DNA from: Treponema sp. | GTDB lineage: Bacteria; Spirochaetota; Spirochaetia; Treponematales; Breznakiellaceae | Direction: 5' to 3' | Assembly: GCA_009782955.1 (NCBI GenBank) | Contig: WRIB01000002.1 | Location: 1,441 to 65,440 of the forward strand | Length of the DNA: 64,000 nt | Shown here: positions 16,501 to 24,682 of the stretch, one piece after another | How positions within the stretch are numbered: position 1 is the stretch's first letter | Layout: every line of letters starts with the position of its first letter | The notes under the pieces: generated by a model | What the model saw: the letters and a program-made list of their open reading frames with translations, nothing else | Database searches by the model: none | What the model was told of the DNA's origin: nothing | Program-made: the position numbers and the translations under genes

Positions 16501-17031
16501 TTACTTAAGCAGTTTTTGATACAGCGATAAATTTTCCCGATCAAAGCAGACAAATATGATTTGTTTGATACCCGGTGTTTCGGGCATTGTTTTATTAACC
16601 GCCGCAACCGCTGCGGCAGCAGCCTTGTCTTTTGGGTAACCGTAAATCCCCGTGCTGATGTTTGGAAAGGCAATGCTCTGTACTGTATTCTCTTCGGCAA
16701 GGAGAAGACTTTTCCGGTAACATGAAGCAAGCAATTCGCTTTCTCCCTGATCGCCGCCGTGCCAGACCGGCCCTACGGTATGAATCACATGCTTGGCAGA
16801 AAGCTTTCCAGCGCCGGTAATTACCGCATCACCTGTGGGGCAAGGACCGCCGGGAATGTCTTTTCTCTGCGCAGCGATTTTCCGGCATTCTTCCAGCAAA
16901 GAAGGCCCGGCGGCCCGGTGTATGGCGCCGTCTACTCCGCCGCCGCCCATCAGGCTTGAGTTTGCCGCATTAACAATTGCATCAACATTTTGTGTGGTAA
17001 TATCTCCCATAATTACTTGTAGCTGTGGCAT
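16501..17031 (-). CDS. Macro-domain protein (O-acetyl-ADP-ribose deacetylase / ADP-ribose binding, YmdB-like)
   Basis: [34 protein letters not shown] and ISTGIYGYP blocks. The start codon lies inside or at the 3' end of res (the second ATG, at 17010, is 2 nt past the res stop). Confidence 0.9.
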
Positions 17032-19619
17032 ATTTTCTCCTTAATCTGCTCCGCTGCATTTTTTCCATTTTTATTTTCAAGAGTAATGAGGAACAAACCC
17101 TTTCCTTTGGTGTGTTTTTCCCATAATTCACCAATTAAAGCTTTTTCTTTGGTATCATCGATGGTAGCCAGGTGAGCCCCTTTATACTCAATTATTAATA
17201 TTCGCTCATCCTTTAATTTTACGATAAAATCGGGGTAAAAGTTATCTGTTGATGTAGGTAAATGAAATGAAGCAGGATGCCGTGATACATTTCGTAACCA
17301 ATATGCCGTTTCGCTTTCACTGTCAATGGCTTTGGCGCAACTGCATTCTTCTCCGTTTTCGCCGCCATCAAACATAGGGATTTTATCATTACCTAAAAAA
17401 TGTTTTTTAAATTTATATTTACCCTGATATAATGGTACACCATCATACATGCCAGCATAAAAATTGAGAGGCGTTTCAAAATCTATAATCTTGCGGCCAT
17501 CCTTTTCAAATAATTCAAATGATGTTGTACGGGCTTTTTTTCGCCCTTCTGCTATTTTAACTGACAGTTTATTAAGCAATGCATATTTTGCGATCATTAG
17601 TTTTGTAACAGAGATTTTCCTTTTTTCCGTTAAATACCGGATAATGCTGCCCAGCCAGAATACCATGTGCGATTGGGGTATATCATTCTGTTTTAATGAG
17701 TTGTCCAGCCAGTGAACCAGATTTGCTTCTGTCCATACATCAACGTCTGTCATATAAGGAAGGAGCTGATCTTTTCCGGTTTCGCTGTAACGCAAACGGT
17801 TTCCGTCAATATCAATAAAAAAGCCTTTTCCTGGTGTTTCTTCAATATTGAACTCAATGGAAGATAGTTCACAGGATGCATAATCTTTTATATTCCAATC
17901 AAACTGTTCAAAAATGGTTTCAGTATCCGCAAAAAGGAATTCACCCTGCGCTTCAAACAAGAGGCGCGGAATCGAAAACTTCTCTCCTTTGGAAGCAGGG
18001 GATTGTTCTATTGGGGTTGATTTATAGTTCCTGAATTTCCAGATAAGATCTGCCGCTTCCCTTGAACTTATTTTTTGGCAGACTTTTTCTATATCCGATT
18101 CGGTGGTTTCCAGTGTAAAGAATAACGTATTATTTTTATCCAGTTCAATTGATGACGGCAATGCATTTTTATCTATATGTCCACTTAGTTTAAATTGATT
18201 GGGGGAGGTGCCCCAATTGGGGTTTAAGGTAAATTCCGCCGGGGGTTCCTGCTGAATGCTTGCCTGAGCCTCGTCATCGTCAAAGCCTTTATTAATGAGC
18301 TTTTCGGTAAGGGCCTTCGCAGCCTCGCCAAAATGGGGGGAAACAACATAGGCGTATGCTTTATTAAGCGAAGGCTCTTTCCGTTCTTTTGCATAGGGCA
18401 TCCGCATAACCCGGCCAAGCAGCTGTTCAACCGAGGTATCACTTTTAATATTGGCAAGGGAACACAGAACATAAGCAAAACTGCAATCCCACCCTTCTTT
18501 TAAGGCTTCTACGGTTATAATAAAGCGAGTAGGTTCATCGGGATTGAATAAGTCGATATCATCCAGTTGTTTTTGTTCGCCTGTGGCGATTTTTATCTGG
18601 TTTTCCGGAAGGTTTGCGGTTTCCAGAAGATAGTTTTTAAGAACATCAACAGTAACTTCTTTATCTTTACTTTGGGCCTGAAACAGGAGGATTGGACGGA
18701 TATACTCTCTTTCTTTCTGTGCGTCCTTTTCCAGGGCAGCACGGCGGGCGATTGCTTCATCAACAGCAAGTTCCCAACCGGAATGTTCCACAAGAGCAAT
18801 GGGAAGTTTTATCATTTCCTCTTCTTTAAGTTCCGCTGCCCTGACATTGTAAATCGTATTGTTATTGGGACGTGGTGTTGCGGTAAATTCCACGATAGTA
18901 GCAGGATTAATCCGTCGCTGGGTTTCCTGTGACAGATCGGTTACTACCTTATGAGCTTCATCAACTATCATTATCGGGCGGTGGTACAACAGCAGATTGG
19001 CGAAAGAATATTTAGGACGATCATAATCCGGGCTTGCTTCCATTACAGAAAAACATGCAGTGGGTATTTTGGCGAAATGGTCTTCGTAATTCTCGTTGTC
19101 TTTATAGACATTGTATTTACTTGTATCTTCTTTTACAAAAGATTGTATTGTAGAAACAATAATACATGCATTGGCGGAAATATCCATGGGGCGGATGTTG
19201 CATTTTTCATCCAGGTCAAAAATTCTTACTTTTCCGGCGAACTGATCATCAAGAACCTGACGGTACGGATGGCGCGGGTTTTTCAGGGCTTCGATGGTTT
19301 GCCTTCGTATGGTATCTGAGGGGACAAACCAGAGGGCAAGAGGATAGTCCTTGCCGCACCAGACTTGAGAAATTACCTTTATGGAATGTGCAGCAAGGAT
19401 GGTTTTTCCGCCTCCGGTTGGAATCTTAATGCAGACCCGCGGAGTATTTGGTATTGCGTCCCATGTGGTGTATCCGTTTCTTACATTAACAAGGCGGGAT
19501 GCTATCTCACTTTCTCCGGTTATCTTTTTGAACGCTTCGGTATGTCCCATGATACGGCAATATTCGAAAAATCTTTTCAGGGTGTCCAATGAATTTTGCT
19601 GATAGTTTTTAAGCTGCAT
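17013..19619 (-). CDS. res: Type III restriction enzyme Res subunit (SF2 helicase plus PD-(D/E)xK nuclease)
   Basis: Walker [13 protein letters not shown] box IVDEAHK, C-terminal FYPDF...IIEYKG nuclease motif. Lies 1 nt downstream of the mod stop. Confidence 0.88.
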
Positions 19620-19620
19620 A

Positions 19621-21180
19621 CTACCAGACCTTTATTTCGTAAGGAATTTGTTTAAATACAATACCGTTGGATTTAACGGCAGCATGAGGCAGGCGGGTTG
19701 CCTCGCCGTATATAATCAATTTGCTAAAAGACAGGTTCTGACCCTTCTTCTTTGATGCAGCTTCAATGCTGTTCATAATATGGTTTAGGGTAATATGGGT
19801 CAGGACATTGCCACCGCCGGGACTTTTGTCGCCCAAAATGCCGTTGTAAAGAAGCGCGTATGCGGTGCCGTTGTGAATGCCTAAAAACGCGGATTTCTTT
19901 TTTGGTTTTTTCATGGGGGTTTTTGTTTCGGTAAAGAAAATATGCGCGGCCAAATTTTCAAAAGATATATCGCTTTTTATCCGCTGGTCACTGTTAAAAA
20001 CTGCTTCGCCCAGTGTGAAAAAGCGGAAACCGCCGCCGCCTTTCCAGCTCACAGCTTCGGATATTCCGCCCTGCTCACCGTCTATTACTTTTTTTAGACG
20101 GACGGCGCAGTGGGTCTTTGCCTGTTCACCCATTTCCACGCCGATGTAACGCCTGCCCATTTTGTGTGCAACGGCGGCTGTTGTGCCGGAGCCAAGGAAG
20201 GAGTCAAGGACGAGATCGCAGGGGTTGGTGGCTATGTGGATTATGCGCTGGATTAATCGTTCCGGTTTTGGGGTGGAGAAAGTACTTGTATTGCCAAATA
20301 GTTTTATGATTTCGCGTTTAGCTTCTTGATTATGACCAACATCAGAGCTTGACCACCATGTATCACCTTTGCGTCCATCCATTACATCACAAAGAAATCT
20401 TTTTTTTCGAGGAAAAGCAGTTCCATCTTTACCAAACCATATTCTATTTTCTGCAATTAGTTCTTCCATATTCTTTTTTGAATATACCCAATGCTTACCT
20501 TTTGGAACATTAAATACCTTATTTGATATGGGAGAAACTACATCATAATATCCGTTAGTACGCTCTTCGCTTGCAACCAAATCACCTGATTGCCAAGCAC
20601 CGCGAGGATCATTATCAGGATTTTGATACCTGCTGTTCATTTTCTCTGTTCTTTGCAAAAGATTAAATTTTACCTGTTCTTTGTTTTTTGAATACAAAAG
20701 AATAAAATCATGGTTTTCAGATAGATATTTAGCATCATTTTTTATACTATGGATTTTCTGCCATAAAATTGTAGTAATAAAATTTGACCTTCCAAAGGTT
20801 TCATCGCATATCACTTTTGCGTAGGCTTGTTCATTATCATCAATTTGAAAAAATAAAACCCCATCTTCCCGTAAAAATTGTTTTAACAACTCCAGCCGGG
20901 GGTACATTATCGAAAGCCATAATGTATGTTCCATGTTGTCGTCATAATGTTCAAATGCCGAGCCGGTATTATACGGTGGGTCAATGTAAATGCATTTTAC
21001 CTGTCCGGCATAGAAAGGGAGTAAGGCTTTGAGGGCTTCAAGGTTGTCGCCCTGCACTATGAGATTGCCGCTGTCCGGATCGCCGTAACTGTATTTTTCA
21101 TCCTCTGCCAGGAGGCGGTATTCTGTTTTGGAAGCGGCTTTGAGATCAGATTTTTTTGTAAGCCAGGATAGAGTTGGCAA
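19621..21180 (-). CDS. mod: Type III R-M Mod subunit (beta-class N6-adenine/N4-cytosine DNA methyltransferase)
   Basis: Motif IV IYIDPPYNTG precedes motif I VLDSFLGSGTTAAVA (beta-class order). Sits immediately upstream of res. Confidence 0.88.
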   Translation of the reverse strand: MPTLSWLTKKSDLKAASKTEYRLLAEDEKYSYGDPDSGNLIVQGDNLEALKALLPFYAGQVKCIYIDPPYNTGSAFEHYDDNMEHTLWLSIMYPRLELLKQFLREDGVLFFQIDDNEQAYAKVICDETFGRSNFITTILWQKIHSIKNDAKYLSENHDFILLYSKNKEQVKFNLLQRTEKMNSRYQNPDNDPRGAWQSGDLVASEERTNGYYDVVSPISNKVFNVPKGKHWVYSKKNMEELIAENRIWFGKDGTAFPRKKRFLCDVMDGRKGDTWWSSSDVGHNQEAKREIIKLFGNTSTFSTPKPERLIQRIIHIATNPCDLVLDSFLGSGTTAAVAHKMGRRYIGVEMGEQAKTHCAVRLKKVIDGEQGGISEAVSWKGGGGFRFFTLGEAVFNSDQRIKSDISFENLAAHIFFTETKTPMKKPKKKSAFLGIHNGTAYALLYNGILGDKSPGGGNVLTHITLNHIMNSIEAASKKKGQNLSFSKLIIYGEATRLPHAAVKSNGIVFKQIPYEIKVW

Positions 21181-21283: not shown

Positions 21284-21661
21284 ATGGAGAAACCACCGTA
21301 TTTACGTGAGATTCTTGCCCAAAATATCAAAAATGCCCGTATCTCATTGTGTATTACTCAGGAAAAGCTTGCGGAGTATGCTTCGATTTCTGTCCCATAT
21401 ATGCGGGATATTGAATACTGTAAATCCTGGGTGAGTGATGAAACCTTGGATAAGATCGCCAAGGCATTAAGTATGGAAGCTTACGAATTACTTATTCCTC
21501 AAAAACCGCATGAGGGAGGAAAATCCGATCAGAATAAAGCCGCTTTACGGAAAACAACAGAATTAATCATTGCAAAGAAAAAAGAATTAAGAAAAAAAGC
21601 GGGAGAAATGATGGATGAACTTATGCATGAAATTATACAGATACATGGCAAAGGTAAATGA
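21284..21661 (+). CDS. XRE-family HTH transcriptional regulator (possible R-M controller)
   Basis: HTH_3-like LREILAQNIKNARISLCITQEKLAEYASISVPYMRDIE. Divergent from mod, with a 103-bp shared intergenic region. Confidence 0.75.
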   Translation: MEKPPYLREILAQNIKNARISLCITQEKLAEYASISVPYMRDIEYCKSWVSDETLDKIAKALSMEAYELLIPQKPHEGGKSDQNKAALRKTTELIIAKKKELRKKAGEMMDELMHEIIQIHGKGK

Positions 21662-21701
21662 CGGGGGGATTCTTTTATCAGCGAGGTATAGAGGACAAAG
21701 C

Positions 21702-22772
21702 TTATTTCTTTTTTATGGCCATGACATAAGTCATTACATTATCACCATAAGGTGTTAATGTCCAATAAGCACCTGCGTCTTTGACACTGCGAGTTTTCTT
21801 GCTTTGAGTAATCAAACCAAGAGATCTCAATTGGATTTTAATTGTTTGAAAATCTGTATCAATTACTTTAAAACCGGATAATTCCTTTTTGGAGTAATTA
21901 TCTTCATTTTTTTCTTTTTTCTGAAAAAGAGAAACGTAATTTGTTTCATATATAAGTCTATTTATTTGTATTTTCATCGTGCCTTCGTTTGCTTCATTTA
22001 GCAAAACAGGAGAAATGTACGAAAAAATTTTATTCCAGCTCAACACAGCAACAGCATCAGACGATAATTTTGCATCAGCATAACTTTTATCATTAATGTC
22101 TTTCCAATATTTAATCTCATAACTATAATTTATTTCAAATAAATCATCACCATGTGCTAAATTCTCTGAACCTGCAGGAGCTTTATTTGATACAGATTCG
22201 ATTTGTCTTTCCAATTCACTTATACGATTTCGCTGTTTCAATATCTCCGAAGAAGAGTCCTCATCTGGGACTAAATCAGCGCGAACATAACCAATTGCAG
22301 GATGATTTTCTATGGCATAAAATAAACTAGAAACTGCTTTTAATTGTAATTCTTCGTGATTCTCCCAAAATTCTACTACTCGACCTTTTTTTGCTTTCTC
22401 TCGAAATGAATCCAGTTTTTTCCGCATTTCAGCATTTTCTTCTGATTTACCAAAAGGAATTGCATCTGGATTCTTATGTATTAAACAAATAATGTCTAAT
22501 CCTTTATCTTTCGCATAATCATATTCTTTTTCGGTATAACTTATTCCATCTGAAGAAGTCGAACCATATCTACCGCCAATAATTAATAAATAATAATCGC
22601 TTTCATCTATTCTCTTTTTAATAAATTCCAATTGTTCTTCATCTACTGCAGGAAATAATTCCATTCCAGCAGGAATACAATTTACCTTCATTAATACACG
22701 CATTACATGATCACGCTCTTCTTTTAGATCATCATATGTTGAACTTAAAAAAACCTGATAACGTTTTTTCAT
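21702..22772 (-). CDS. DUF4062 (TIR-like) N-terminal domain protein with coiled coil and unassigned C-terminal half, 356 aa
   Basis: YQVFLSSTYDDLKEER, IIGGRYGS and SYTEKEY blocks match my recollection of the DUF4062 signature. Residues about 170-200 look like coiled coil (ILKQRNRISELERQIESVS). The C-terminal 150 aa have no recognisable motif. AGAGGA SD sequence 6 nt upstream. Confidence 0.7.
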   Translation of the reverse strand: MKKRYQVFLSSTYDDLKEERDHVMRVLMKVNCIPAGMELFPAVDEEQLEFIKKRIDESDYYLLIIGGRYGSTSSDGISYTEKEYDYAKDKGLDIICLIHKNPDAIPFGKSEENAEMRKKLDSFREKAKKGRVVEFWENHEELQLKAVSSLFYAIENHPAIGYVRADLVPDEDSSSEILKQRNRISELERQIESVSNKAPAGSENLAHGDDLFEINYSYEIKYWKDINDKSYADAKLSSDAVAVLSWNKIFSYISPVLLNEANEGTMKIQINRLIYETNYVSLFQKKEKNEDNYSKKELSGFKVIDTDFQTIKIQLRSLGLITQSKKTRSVKDAGAYWTLTPYGDNVMTYVMAIKKK

Positions 22773-22865
22773 TATTTATCCTCTTTTTCTGGTTCTCAAA
22801 GTATTCCTTTAGTTTTTCAATTTTATCTAACAATAATATCTATTATTAGAGACAGATCATTATCA

Positions 22866-23189
22866 TTAAGCGGCATATATTATTTCCCGTGTTGACAGTA
22901 TTTTATTTTTCCTTATTGGATTTTTCAAAGATTCCTTTTCAACAACATCGACTTCCCTGTTTAGTGTCATGGAAAATTCTTTTTCCAATTCCATTATATC
23001 AAATAAATTTATTTTTGAATTTTGATCAAATGATACAAGAATATCCACATCGCTTTTTTGAGTGAAATCATCACGAATTGATGAGCCAAATACTGATAAT
23101 TCAATAATTTGATATTTTTTGCATACACTAACTATGTCATCAATCCTAAAAAAAATACCGTTTTTTCGTAATTTTTCCATTGCTTCCAT
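22866..23189 (-). CDS. Minimal nucleotidyltransferase (MntA-like, type VII TA antitoxin family)
   Basis: FGSSIRDDFTQKSDVDILVSF is the GSxxR...SDxDhhV Pol-beta-type NTase motif. 107 aa. AGAGGA SD sequence 5 nt upstream. No HEPN/DUF86 ORF adjacent. Confidence 0.8.
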   Translation of the reverse strand: MEAMEKLRKNGIFFRIDDIVSVCKKYQIIELSVFGSSIRDDFTQKSDVDILVSFDQNSKINLFDIMELEKEFSMTLNREVDVVEKESLKNPIRKNKILSTREIIYAA

Positions 23190-23220
23190 AAAAATCCTCT
23201 ATAAAAAGTATTGCCGTATA

Positions 23221-23237
23221 ATTGTGTTTTACACAAT
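23221..23237. promoter_or_regulatory. Perfect palindrome ATTGTGT-ttt-ACACAAT upstream of the MNT gene (candidate operator)
   Basis: 7-bp arms with a 3-nt spacer, lying 32 nt upstream of the MNT ATG and 14 nt downstream of the higA-immA stop. Confidence 0.45.
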
Positions 23238-23250
23238 ATCCCTGCACAAC

Positions 23251-24357
23251 CTACCCATTTACCCACTCATACCTCACCTTAAGCCCATTACCCCAGTTCC
23301 TGGGCATTTTTTTGTCATGTTGCAATCTGCCCACAACAATACCGGGTGCAATACCAATACTTACCGCGAATTTTTCTACCTGGGCCAATGTTGGGCTAAA
23401 AACAGATGCAAGAAAATTTTCCAGTTGTTCCGGCGGTACTAGAATATCACAGGCAAAAGCATTTGCTTCAATTTCATTTTTATTTTCCAGACCTTTTCCT
23501 TCAATATAAAGCTCCCTGTTAGGGTGCTTAATTATATGGCAAGCTTCGTGGAAAACAGTAAACCACAGTTGGTCATTACTTTTACCATATAAACTTAACT
23601 GCATGATGTATTTGTCATTAAGCTGGCGTGTTGCTCCATAAATACCAAGCCTGGGAAGCGCGGGGATAAAAACAATAGCTATTCCGGAAGCTGCGCAAAT
23701 TGATGTTAGTTTCGGAACAAACACCTTTGGATCTTCTACGGTAAGCTTGCGAATTTCCGAAAGGCTGTTTTGGAAATTCTTTTTATCAATCTGAGCGCAG
23801 CGTAGTTGATGCGCTTCAATCTCGCCTCTACGCAGCCATGCTGAAATTATTGCAGAATCTTTTTGAGAACTTTCTGTTTTGCGAAAAGCAGCCTGTAATT
23901 CGCGAACCCAAACTGTTTCCCATTGCTGCGGAGAAGCTACAGCAAAAAATCTCAGGAGTGCGTCAATTTGCTGAACCTTACCTTTACACTTTTCTATCCA
24001 GCCGAATTCTGTCATTTTGTTCACAGGGAAAAGATCGCGCCAATGCAGGAATTCTTCTAATCGTAATTTATCGGCAAGCCGCGTTTTATCTTCCTGATAC
24101 TGACGCTCAAGGTTACTCCAAAAATGTGCAGGGCGACCCAAAGTACGTTCAAATTTTAAAGCTGTTTCCGCTGTAATGGCGGATTTTGCTTTGACTATTT
24201 CGTTTATCGTCTTTTTTGACAACCCTGTCCGATCCGCAAGAGATGCCTGCGTAAGCCCTGCATTTTCAAGATAATCCTCCAAAACTTCGCCTGGAGTGAC
24301 CATATAATCGGGAACATATTCATTAACTGTCTGAATCTTATTCATGGGTATCCTCAA
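23251..24357 (-). CDS. HigA-type HTH antitoxin fused to an ImmA/IrrE (COG2856) zinc metallopeptidase domain
   Basis: N-terminus TPGEVLEDYLENAGLTQASLADRTGLSKKTINEIVKAKSAITAETALKFERTLGRPAHFWSNLERQY (HigA/VapI-like). HEACH (HExxH) at FHEACHIIKH. Overlaps higB by 20 nt. Confidence 0.8.
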   Translation of the reverse strand: MRIPMNKIQTVNEYVPDYMVTPGEVLEDYLENAGLTQASLADRTGLSKKTINEIVKAKSAITAETALKFERTLGRPAHFWSNLERQYQEDKTRLADKLRLEEFLHWRDLFPVNKMTEFGWIEKCKGKVQQIDALLRFFAVASPQQWETVWVRELQAAFRKTESSQKDSAIISAWLRRGEIEAHQLRCAQIDKKNFQNSLSEIRKLTVEDPKVFVPKLTSICAASGIAIVFIPALPRLGIYGATRQLNDKYIMQLSLYGKSNDQLWFTVFHEACHIIKHPNRELYIEGKGLENKNEIEANAFACDILVPPEQLENFLASVFSPTLAQVEKFAVSIGIAPGIVVGRLQHDKKMPRNWGNGLKVRYEWVNG

Positions 24358-24682
24358 TTCCTAAAATTGTAATAGCCGTTACCTGTTTCCAGTCAAGTCC
24401 GCCATCTAGCATTTGCGGAATCGGCTTGTGATTGGGAACAAAAATGAGCCGGTACGGATGATCCAAATCAACTGATATCTGCCCTTTACGTTCCCCTGTC
24501 AATTCATGGCACCGACCAGGGCCGGTTTTAGGAGGCCAAAAGTCATTCAGACATGAAGCCGCCATGAATTCGGTTAGCCTAATGCGAATTTTCTTGGCCC
24601 TAAGGCTTCCATGGACTTTCTCAAGCATTTTCCCTTCGTTAAACTCTTTTTTCAACTTCGTACTCTTAAAAGATATATCCAA
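24338..24682 (-). CDS. higB: HigB-like toxin (plasmid maintenance system killer, RelE/ParE superfamily)
   Basis: SFKSTKLKKEF...AKKIRIRL..., H.LTGERKGQISVDLD.PYRLIF pattern. TTG start with GAGG 5 nt upstream. Confidence 0.75.
   Translation of the reverse strand: MDISFKSTKLKKEFNEGKMLEKVHGSLRAKKIRIRLTEFMAASCLNDFWPPKTGPGRCHELTGERKGQISVDLDHPYRLIFVPNHKPIPQMLDGGLDWKQVTAITILGIEDTHE

Follow-up and report, generated by a model that had tools for sequence, protein, structure and literature searches.

We analysed a 64-kb stretch of a Treponema sp. contig (WRIB01000002.1; hereafter the window) and focused on two adjoining genes between positions 21702 and 23189. One codes for a 356-aa protein with an N-terminal DUF4062 domain, and the other for a 107-aa protein of the minimal nucleotidyltransferase (MNT) type. 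The initial annotation of this locus had proposed that the two form an undescribed two-gene defence or toxin-antitoxin (TA) system. The open reading frames (ORFs) themselves are where it had placed them (Table 1), on the same (-) strand with 93 nt between them, and both start codons are preceded by strong Shine-Dalgarno (SD) sequences of the GAGGA type. The A+T-rich location was also borne out, with a GC content of 0.29-0.32 across 21600-23400 compared with 0.43-0.49 in the flanks. We nevertheless consider it highly probable that the locus is made of two unrelated elements that adjoin each other in a Treponema defence island, namely a single-gene protein of the Swarozyc (Swz) family and the orphan MntA of a decayed MntA-HepT module.

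The Pfam DUF4062 model (PF13271) matches residues 6-87 of the 356-aa protein with an E value of 9.6e-30 (103 bits, for a cutoff of 24.7), in agreement with the assignment of its N-terminus in the initial annotation. The family is conserved along its whole length and comprises 6645 matches at E <= 1e-3 among the 8000 candidates scored. Full-length relatives, with 38-62% identity, are found in many bacterial phyla and in Methanothrix, and an identical copy of the protein is recorded for a Treponema sp. metagenome-assembled genome (MAG). According to the preprint of Osinski et al., DUF4062 is a TIR-like NADase, the corresponding defence system was named Swarozyc, and its representative from Klebsiella pneumoniae, KpSwz (WP_202404386), requires both Glu97 and a C-terminal domain called AUX (10.64898/2026.05.01.722283).

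A profile built from the 356-aa protein and 25 relatives matched the KpSwz chain 10wc_A with an E value of 3.7e-102, its positions 2-352 aligning with positions 3-325 of the chain. The single sequence also retrieved KpSwz with phmmer (E 1.4e-69), and BLASTP aligned the two proteins with 53% identity over 205 N-terminal aa (residues 3-206). For the C-terminal region, a profile restricted to the AUX domain (residues 197-356; 26 relatives) matched the KpSwz AUX over 137 of its 158 positions, with an E value of 2.6e-10 calculated for a PDB-sized search space (Z=177,635). A profile was needed for this, as the AUX domain alone gave no significant match to KpSwz in a single-sequence search (E 0.47). 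KpSwz is represented in the PDB sequence copy by entries 10wc, 11cq and 11cv, and the deposited chain is the E97A mutant; Glu83 (E83) of the 356-aa protein aligns with the Ala of that chain. The numbering of the chain is offset by 13 from that of the preprint (chain W163 is W176, and chain W225 is W238), and the hairpin residue W238 of KpSwz maps onto W223 of the 356-aa protein.

As judged from these sequence comparisons, the 356-aa protein is a full-length KpSwz homologue and a member of the Swarozyc lineage, and we rejected the possibility that it represents an undescribed family. The C-terminal region, in which the initial annotation could name no motif, is homologous to the winged-helix AUX domain of KpSwz. 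We also tried and rejected an assignment to the lineage of Evangelion Eva01. The homologues encoded on Staphylococcus plasmids match only residues 2-133, and the Evangelion preprint places Swarozyc in a lineage apart from Eva (10.64898/2026.06.25.731849); the 356-aa protein therefore belongs with Swarozyc. It has no match in NCBIfam, and the 2023 release of PADLOC has no model for it, as the initial annotation had anticipated. The PADLOC result is not evidence of novelty, because that database predates the description of the family in 2026.

The AlphaFold2 (AF2) model of the 356-aa protein has a mean predicted local distance difference test (pLDDT) score of 82.5. Its N-terminal part is a TIR-like alpha/beta domain with five strands alternating with helices (strands 5-11, 32-35, 60-65, 93-99 and 132-136). 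The AUX domain comprises a hairpin (strands 211-226 and 229-245), helices 246-257 and 263-284, strand 295-303, helix 305-317, a second strand pair (321-323 and 336-339) and a C-terminal helix (341-355). The best Foldseek matches were TIR domains (SPARTA TIR-APAZ, plant TIRs including RPP1, and TIR-STING) and DNPH1; these matches are generic, with low template modelling (TM) scores over the whole chain, and they come from a PDB library that ends on 8 April 2026 and predates KpSwz. They fit the TIR-like fold put forward in the initial annotation. That annotation had also singled out E81 and E83 as key glutamates. E83, at the catalytic position, is invariant in 120 of 120 relatives (alignment P0001-P0120), while position 81 is occupied by Glu, Gln or Arg. 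The least conserved stretches of the protein are residues 221-240, in the hairpin, and 261-280; by analogy with KpSwz, these correspond to the kinds of element that touch the phage portal.

The 107-aa protein carries the motif FGSSIRDD...SDVDILV and matches Pfam NTP_transf_2 and Polbeta with E values of ~1e-13. It is thus probably a minimal MNT-type nucleotidyltransferase, as described. It scores 45.5 bits with the NCBIfam MntA equivalog model, whose cutoff is 60, and the gene context of its relatives is typical of MntA. We found 424 close homologues, and Treponema/Spirochaetia-type metagenomes are rich in close homologues of this protein (64-98% identity). MntA antitoxins of type VII TA systems AMPylate a Tyr residue in the RX4HXY motif of the toxin HepT.

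In 18 related loci, a full or nearly full HepT ORF (117-128 aa; cut off by the contig end in one locus) follows the MNT gene, and the ATG of this ORF overlaps the stop codon of MNT (ATGCCGCTTAATGA). The intact HepT of relatives reads MPLNENDLSFLIDIVDCI...GLRNKLAHDYGEILAERIW...ELEKIEEIKEYI, and for comparison with the window, that of locus L085 and the 17 other loci reads MPLNDNDLSLLIDIVDCI...GLRNKLAHDYGEI...ELEKIEELK. The L085 protein matches Pfam HepT-like with an E value of 1.2e-22, and the HepT proteins of the relatives carry the sequence RNKLAHDY, which conforms to RX4HXY. The ORF downstream of MNT in these loci thus encodes HepT, the HEPN RNase that serves as the toxin in type VII MntA-HepT modules.

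In the window, the hepT ATG similarly overlaps the mntA stop codon and opens a stub of 17 codons, MPLNDNDLSLIIDIIVR, followed by a stop codon. Positions 22876-22831 correspond to hepT nt 1 to ~46, the homology to L085 reaching position 22831, and blastn aligned positions 22824-22784 with hepT nt 325-365 (83% identity). An internal segment of ~278 nt, including the RX4H motif, is therefore deleted. By sequence homology at both of its ends, the 93-nt 'spacer' is a hepT gene with an internal deletion. The initial annotation had considered the HEPN toxin to be absent, and indeed there is no intact HepT downstream of the window MNT; the interval is not empty, as it holds the 17-codon stub and the 3' fragment. 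We found no second HepT or MNT in the window. The MNT of L085, which has an intact HepT, is 98% identical to that of the window (95% at the DNA level); hence, the deletion is recent, and the intactness of mntA calls for no new function. The mntA/hepT pair of the window is a degraded type VII module that no longer encodes a toxin.

Deletions or truncations of hepT next to an intact mntA also occur at other loci (L083, 3238-3300; L096, 2676-2760; L098, L099 and L129), with different breakpoints. The recurrence of such deletions and truncations in termite-gut-type Treponema metagenomes suggests that the toxin is often lost, or that hepT is prone to recombination at its 5' end. In locus L137, a fragment (263-394) homologous to the 3' end of the HigA-like gene (window 23245-23378) is found downstream of MNT; in the window, the HigA-like gene is upstream of MNT. 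This arrangement indicates a further rearrangement around this MNT.

If the MNT and Swz genes formed a system, their association should be found elsewhere, and the initial annotation had suggested looking for it. Among 80 diverse genomic loci with a full-length Swz homologue, we found an MNT-like ORF in one (L024), downstream of the Swz gene and on the opposite strand. Only close relatives went into the MNT search model, which makes it narrow; we therefore also scanned the immediate neighbours of the Swz homologues with Pfam (74 upstream and 76 downstream ORFs). The neighbours are heterogeneous. Among the families listed, the commonest are ResIII, HSDR_N, Methylase_S and DUF4145, each with at most three members, and ResIII is the most common. 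No nucleotidyltransferase family is present among the 25 families listed per flank, of 61 upstream and 92 downstream; a lone nucleotidyltransferase neighbour could escape such lists, whereas a conserved one would show up in them. The four closest Swz relatives examined, from Treponema/Spirochaetia (60-62% identity), have an M78 peptidase, an unknown protein, a DUF5131 protein and a RelB-PIN pair upstream, respectively, and none of the four has an MNT neighbour. Reciprocally, we found no Swz homologue in 59 MNT loci. From these sequence surveys, the Swz gene appears to be a single-gene element with no conserved partner gene. The initial annotation had named a lack of conserved linkage to MNT among the outcomes that would refute its hypothesis, and this is what the surveys gave.

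Comparison with sister loci supports the independence of the two elements. In L084, the HigBA-like and mntA flank matches the window over positions 24734-22838 with 81% DNA identity, and in L081 the mntA flank matches the window down to position 22838. The other flank is also shared, starting from window position 21662 in L081 (HTH and Mod genes) and from 21188 in L084 (Mod gene). Between these flanks, unrelated genes replace Swz: ORFs of 49 and 311 aa in L081 (2444-3636), and of 54, 249, 119 and 183 aa in L084 (4314-6333). L082 (657-1777) similarly harbours ORFs of 54 and 249 aa. Since the sister loci keep the flanks and differ in their cargo, Swz is an exchangeable cargo in a slot (window 21662-22838) with the mntA/hepT stub on one side and the type III restriction-modification (R-M) system on the other. 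Neither Pfam nor PADLOC has a match for the cargo proteins of the sister loci, and their genes may be uncharacterised defence genes.

In the locus with the closest Swz relative (L147, 629-6451), the Swz gene (62% identity at the protein level and 72% at the DNA level) is found between a RelB-PIN TA pair and a Mod/Res pair. Homology to the window begins 10 nt upstream of the Swz ATG, next to the position of the hepT 3' fragment, and continues into the Mod/Res pair, which is 75-78% identical to that of the window. In this clade, Swz thus moves together with the type III R-M system, and the TA module upstream is a different one.

Table 1. Genes, domains and residues of the Swz locus and its immediate setting (window coordinates).
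Feature	Position	Strand	Basis or remarks
Swarozyc-family gene (356 aa)	21702..22772	-	TIR-like DUF4062 domain (predicted NADase), helical stalk and winged-helix AUX domain (putative sensor)
TIR-like (DUF4062) predicted catalytic domain, residues ~1-160	22293..22772	-	AF2 model, Foldseek
Codon of E83, Glu at the catalytic position	22524-22526	-	Alignment with KpSwz E97A
Codon of Leu48, TTG	22629..22631	-	One nucleotide from TGG
Helical stalk, residues 171-196	22185..22262	-	AF2 helix; aligns with the stalk region of KpSwz
AUX domain, residues 197-356	21705..22184	-	Long beta-hairpin 211-245 (Y222-W223 near the tip), then helical/winged-helix core
mntA-type minimal nucleotidyltransferase (107 aa), intact orphan antitoxin	22866..23189	-	Pfam NTP_transf_2, Polbeta
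hepT (HEPN toxin) remnant	22784..22876	-	5' part 22831-22876, directly followed by 3' part 22784-22824
Helix-turn-helix (HTH) regulator, C-protein-like; right flank of the cargo slot (context, outside the Swz gene)	21284..21661	+	Pfam HTH_3; PADLOC Control_protein E 2.1e-9
Type III R-M pair (context)	17013..21180	-	Mod 19621-21180 (Pfam N6_N4_Mtase E 9e-51); Res 17013-19619 (ResIII E 1.6e-16)
HigB-like toxin and HigA-like protein (HTH plus M78 peptidase), left flank	23251..24682	-	HigB-like 24338-24682; HigA-like 23251-24357; Pfam and NCBIfam matches

The flanks are of the kinds named in the initial annotation, a type III Mod/Res pair on one side and HigB-like and HigA-like proteins (the latter with HTH and M78 domains) on the other. 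The HigA-like protein (368 aa) resembles PADLOC PD-Lambda-2_B over nearly its full length (E 1.1e-28). The 114-aa HigB-like protein has no PADLOC match and falls under the Pfam HigB cutoff. The pair may therefore be a PD-lambda-2-like or RmrA-like defence module rather than a plain HigBA TA system. On the other side of the island, a Macro-domain protein (176 aa; Pfam Macro E 3.3e-48) is encoded at 16501-17031 on the minus strand, and the start of its gene overlaps the end of the Res gene. The Macro domain is an ADP-ribose-binding or -hydrolysing fold, here in the same island as a predicted ADP-ribose-producing NADase; this could be a coincidental housekeeping gene. We detected neither a tRNA gene nor an obvious integration site in the vicinity of the island.

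Homology, domain architecture, the conservation of the catalytic residue, the hepT remnant, the lack of conserved linkage and the replacement of the cassette were all computed here. For the chemistry, the trigger and the outcome, KpSwz is the precedent. The preprint describes it as a phage-portal-activated NADase that acts by abortive infection, forms autoinhibited dimers and oligomers through its TIR-like heads and helical stalks, and binds the phage portal with its winged-helix AUX domain, using a hairpin anchor (W238/Y239) and an alpha-loop-beta module (10.64898/2026.05.01.722283). By analogy, the Treponema Swz protein would most likely act alone as a phage-triggered NADase using E83, and would be kept in autoinhibited oligomers by its TIR-like heads and stalk. 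Its variable hairpin and winged-helix AUX domain are predicted to bind an assembled phage structure, for which the KpSwz precedent is the portal dodecamer, and the infected cell would die or arrest before phage release. As to its neighbour, the recent loss of the middle part of hepT (~278 nt with the RX4H motif) probably left MntA as an orphan and reduced the distance between mntA and the start codon of Swz to 93 nt. The mntA-swz pair would look like an operon because the deletion created this proximity. Of the proposal in the initial annotation that the DUF4062 protein is an NAD(P)- or nucleotide-targeting effector held in check or modified by the MNT, the first part thus appears sound by analogy, as a TIR-like NAD-targeting defence effector, and the partnership with MNT does not hold.

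Several points weigh against this interpretation or narrow it. The Trp of the DUF4062 Q/W/E motif, present in 118 of 119 relatives as well as in KpSwz and a Staphylococcus Eva01-like protein, is replaced by Leu at position 48 of the 356-aa protein. This substitution (W48L) could weaken or abolish activity, or it could be a consensus error of the MAG. It is a point substitution and bears on activity, not on homology. Position 162 is Tyr, and its equivalents are W176 in KpSwz and W162 in Eva01. The Evangelion preprint reports that the W162F variant of Eva01 is nearly inactive (10.64898/2026.06.25.731849), although the residue is Phe or Tyr throughout the Treponema clade. In addition, the AUX domain has diverged far from that of KpSwz, as indicated by the single-sequence comparison above, so the trigger may be something other than a portal. 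Moreover, mntA and swz point in the same direction and no terminator is predicted in the interval that separates them, so they may be co-transcribed; the underlying scan for promoters and terminators returned sites no commoner than in shuffled sequence. Finally, the activity of the Swz protein is predicted from homology, and the Swarozyc work is a preprint.

Of the other explanations that we considered, the best surviving one is that the orphan MntA is kept for a use of its own, e.g. as an anti-addiction factor or a cross-neutralizing antitoxin against HepT paralogues encoded in the genome or by invading elements. This is compatible with the Swarozyc identity of the neighbouring gene, and we regard it as a tentative possibility. 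The independent hepT deletions and truncations next to intact mntA genes in the same metagenomes (L083, L096, L098, L099 and L129) and the abundance of the MNT-HepT family in these communities argue for it. However, the window encodes no other HepT, and with an almost identical MNT still paired in L085, the deletion may be too recent for mntA to have decayed.

It is also conceivable, if rather unlikely, that this particular Swz protein is attenuated or dead, with W48L in the Q-W-E motif inactivating the NADase or its regulation in a decaying island. This concerns activity and is equally compatible with the Swarozyc identity. The near-invariance of the Trp in the relatives, KpSwz and the Eva01-like protein is consistent with such a loss, as are the emphasis of the Evangelion preprint on the Q/W/E motif as conserved (10.64898/2026.06.25.731849) and the deletion in the adjoining hepT. 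On the other hand, the ORF is full length, with neither frameshift nor stop, and the other conserved residues that we checked (F8, E38, Y69, T80, E83, W136, W246 and W337) are retained. We found no mutagenesis of the equivalent Trp in the passages of the Swarozyc and Evangelion preprints that we consulted, and the TTG codon could stem from the MAG consensus.

MntA proteins of type VII TA systems bind DNA or AMPylate proteins. One could thus imagine that the hepT deletion fused the transcription of mntA and swz, and that in this lineage the orphan MntA was co-opted to regulate or modify the Swz NADase, in which case W48L might be an adaptation to the new control; we consider this very improbable. 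The original proposal of a dedicated two-gene defence or TA system, with an NADase effector that is restrained or modified by its nucleotidyltransferase partner, is just as improbable: it accounts for two co-directional genes 93 nt apart, each with its own SD sequence and without a terminator-like site between them, and for an intact mntA that has lost its toxin, but the hepT remnant in the spacer indicates that the MNT had another cognate partner, the two genes are unlinked in the 80 diverse and four close Swz loci and in the 59 MNT loci, the MNT stays in sister loci while Swz is swapped for other cargo, the 98%-identical MNT with an intact HepT makes a new function for mntA unnecessary, and, according to the preprint, a single gene is enough for protection in the case of KpSwz and four further homologues (10.64898/2026.05.01.722283).

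The result is of limited importance. The family, its chemistry and its single-gene nature were already described in the 2026 preprints; the Swz protein of this locus is a diverged member in a new host group. With it, the Swarozyc/DUF4062 NADase family now includes termite-gut-type Treponema, in a member whose putative sensor domain has diverged strongly, and this divergence could help to map the variation of AUX domains against that of phage portals or of other triggers. The locus is also a warning for the discovery of defence systems: a decaying TA module beside an exchangeable defence cassette here gave rise to what looked like a new two-gene operon. In the sister loci, unannotated genes occupy the variable slot that separates the mntA/hepT stub from the type III R-M genes, and these may be candidate defence genes.

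Compared with known systems, the 107-aa protein resembles the antitoxins of type VII MntA-HepT modules as a probable minimal MNT with a GS...DxD motif, whose relatives are followed by an overlapping HepT gene. The window module differs from them in that its hepT lacks the middle part with RX4H, so that only a remnant is left, and in that its MntA scores under the model cutoff. As for the 356-aa protein, it shares a TIR/nucleoside deoxyribosyltransferase-like fold and, by analogy, a predicted NAD+ depletion output with the TIR NADase effectors (Thoeris ThsB/ThsA, SPARTA TIR-APAZ and TIR-STING) and human TEP1. In contrast with the canonical TIR effectors, DUF4062 is a separate sequence family. 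The preprint further distinguishes KpSwz from them by its AB dimer interface and by the fact that a phage protein activates it directly, without a signalling nucleotide and without an Argonaute or STING partner (10.64898/2026.05.01.722283).

Evangelion Eva01, encoded on pMW2-type plasmids of S. aureus, is closer. It shares with the window protein a DUF4062 core with the F11, E87-Y88 and Q/W/E motifs, and it is described in its preprint as a single-gene system linked to NAD+ depletion. The cores are 41-47% identical over residues 2-133, but the Eva01 AUX domain is short and unrelated to that of the window protein. The closest system is Swarozyc itself. The preprint reports that five single-gene DUF4062 homologues with similar C-terminal AUX domains protect E. 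coli against BASEL phages (10.64898/2026.05.01.722283). KpSwz and the window gene are both single genes found in defence islands next to R-M systems. The two proteins differ in their hosts, a spirochaete (Treponema MAG) and Klebsiella, and in the AUX domain, which in the window protein has ~30 additional aa, an extended hairpin and wing, and one more loop; the Trp of the Q-W-E motif is replaced by Leu, and W176 of KpSwz by Tyr. Along their whole length they nonetheless have the same architecture, with a DUF4062 domain, the Glu at the catalytic position (E83 for E97), a stalk and a hairpin/winged-helix AUX domain.

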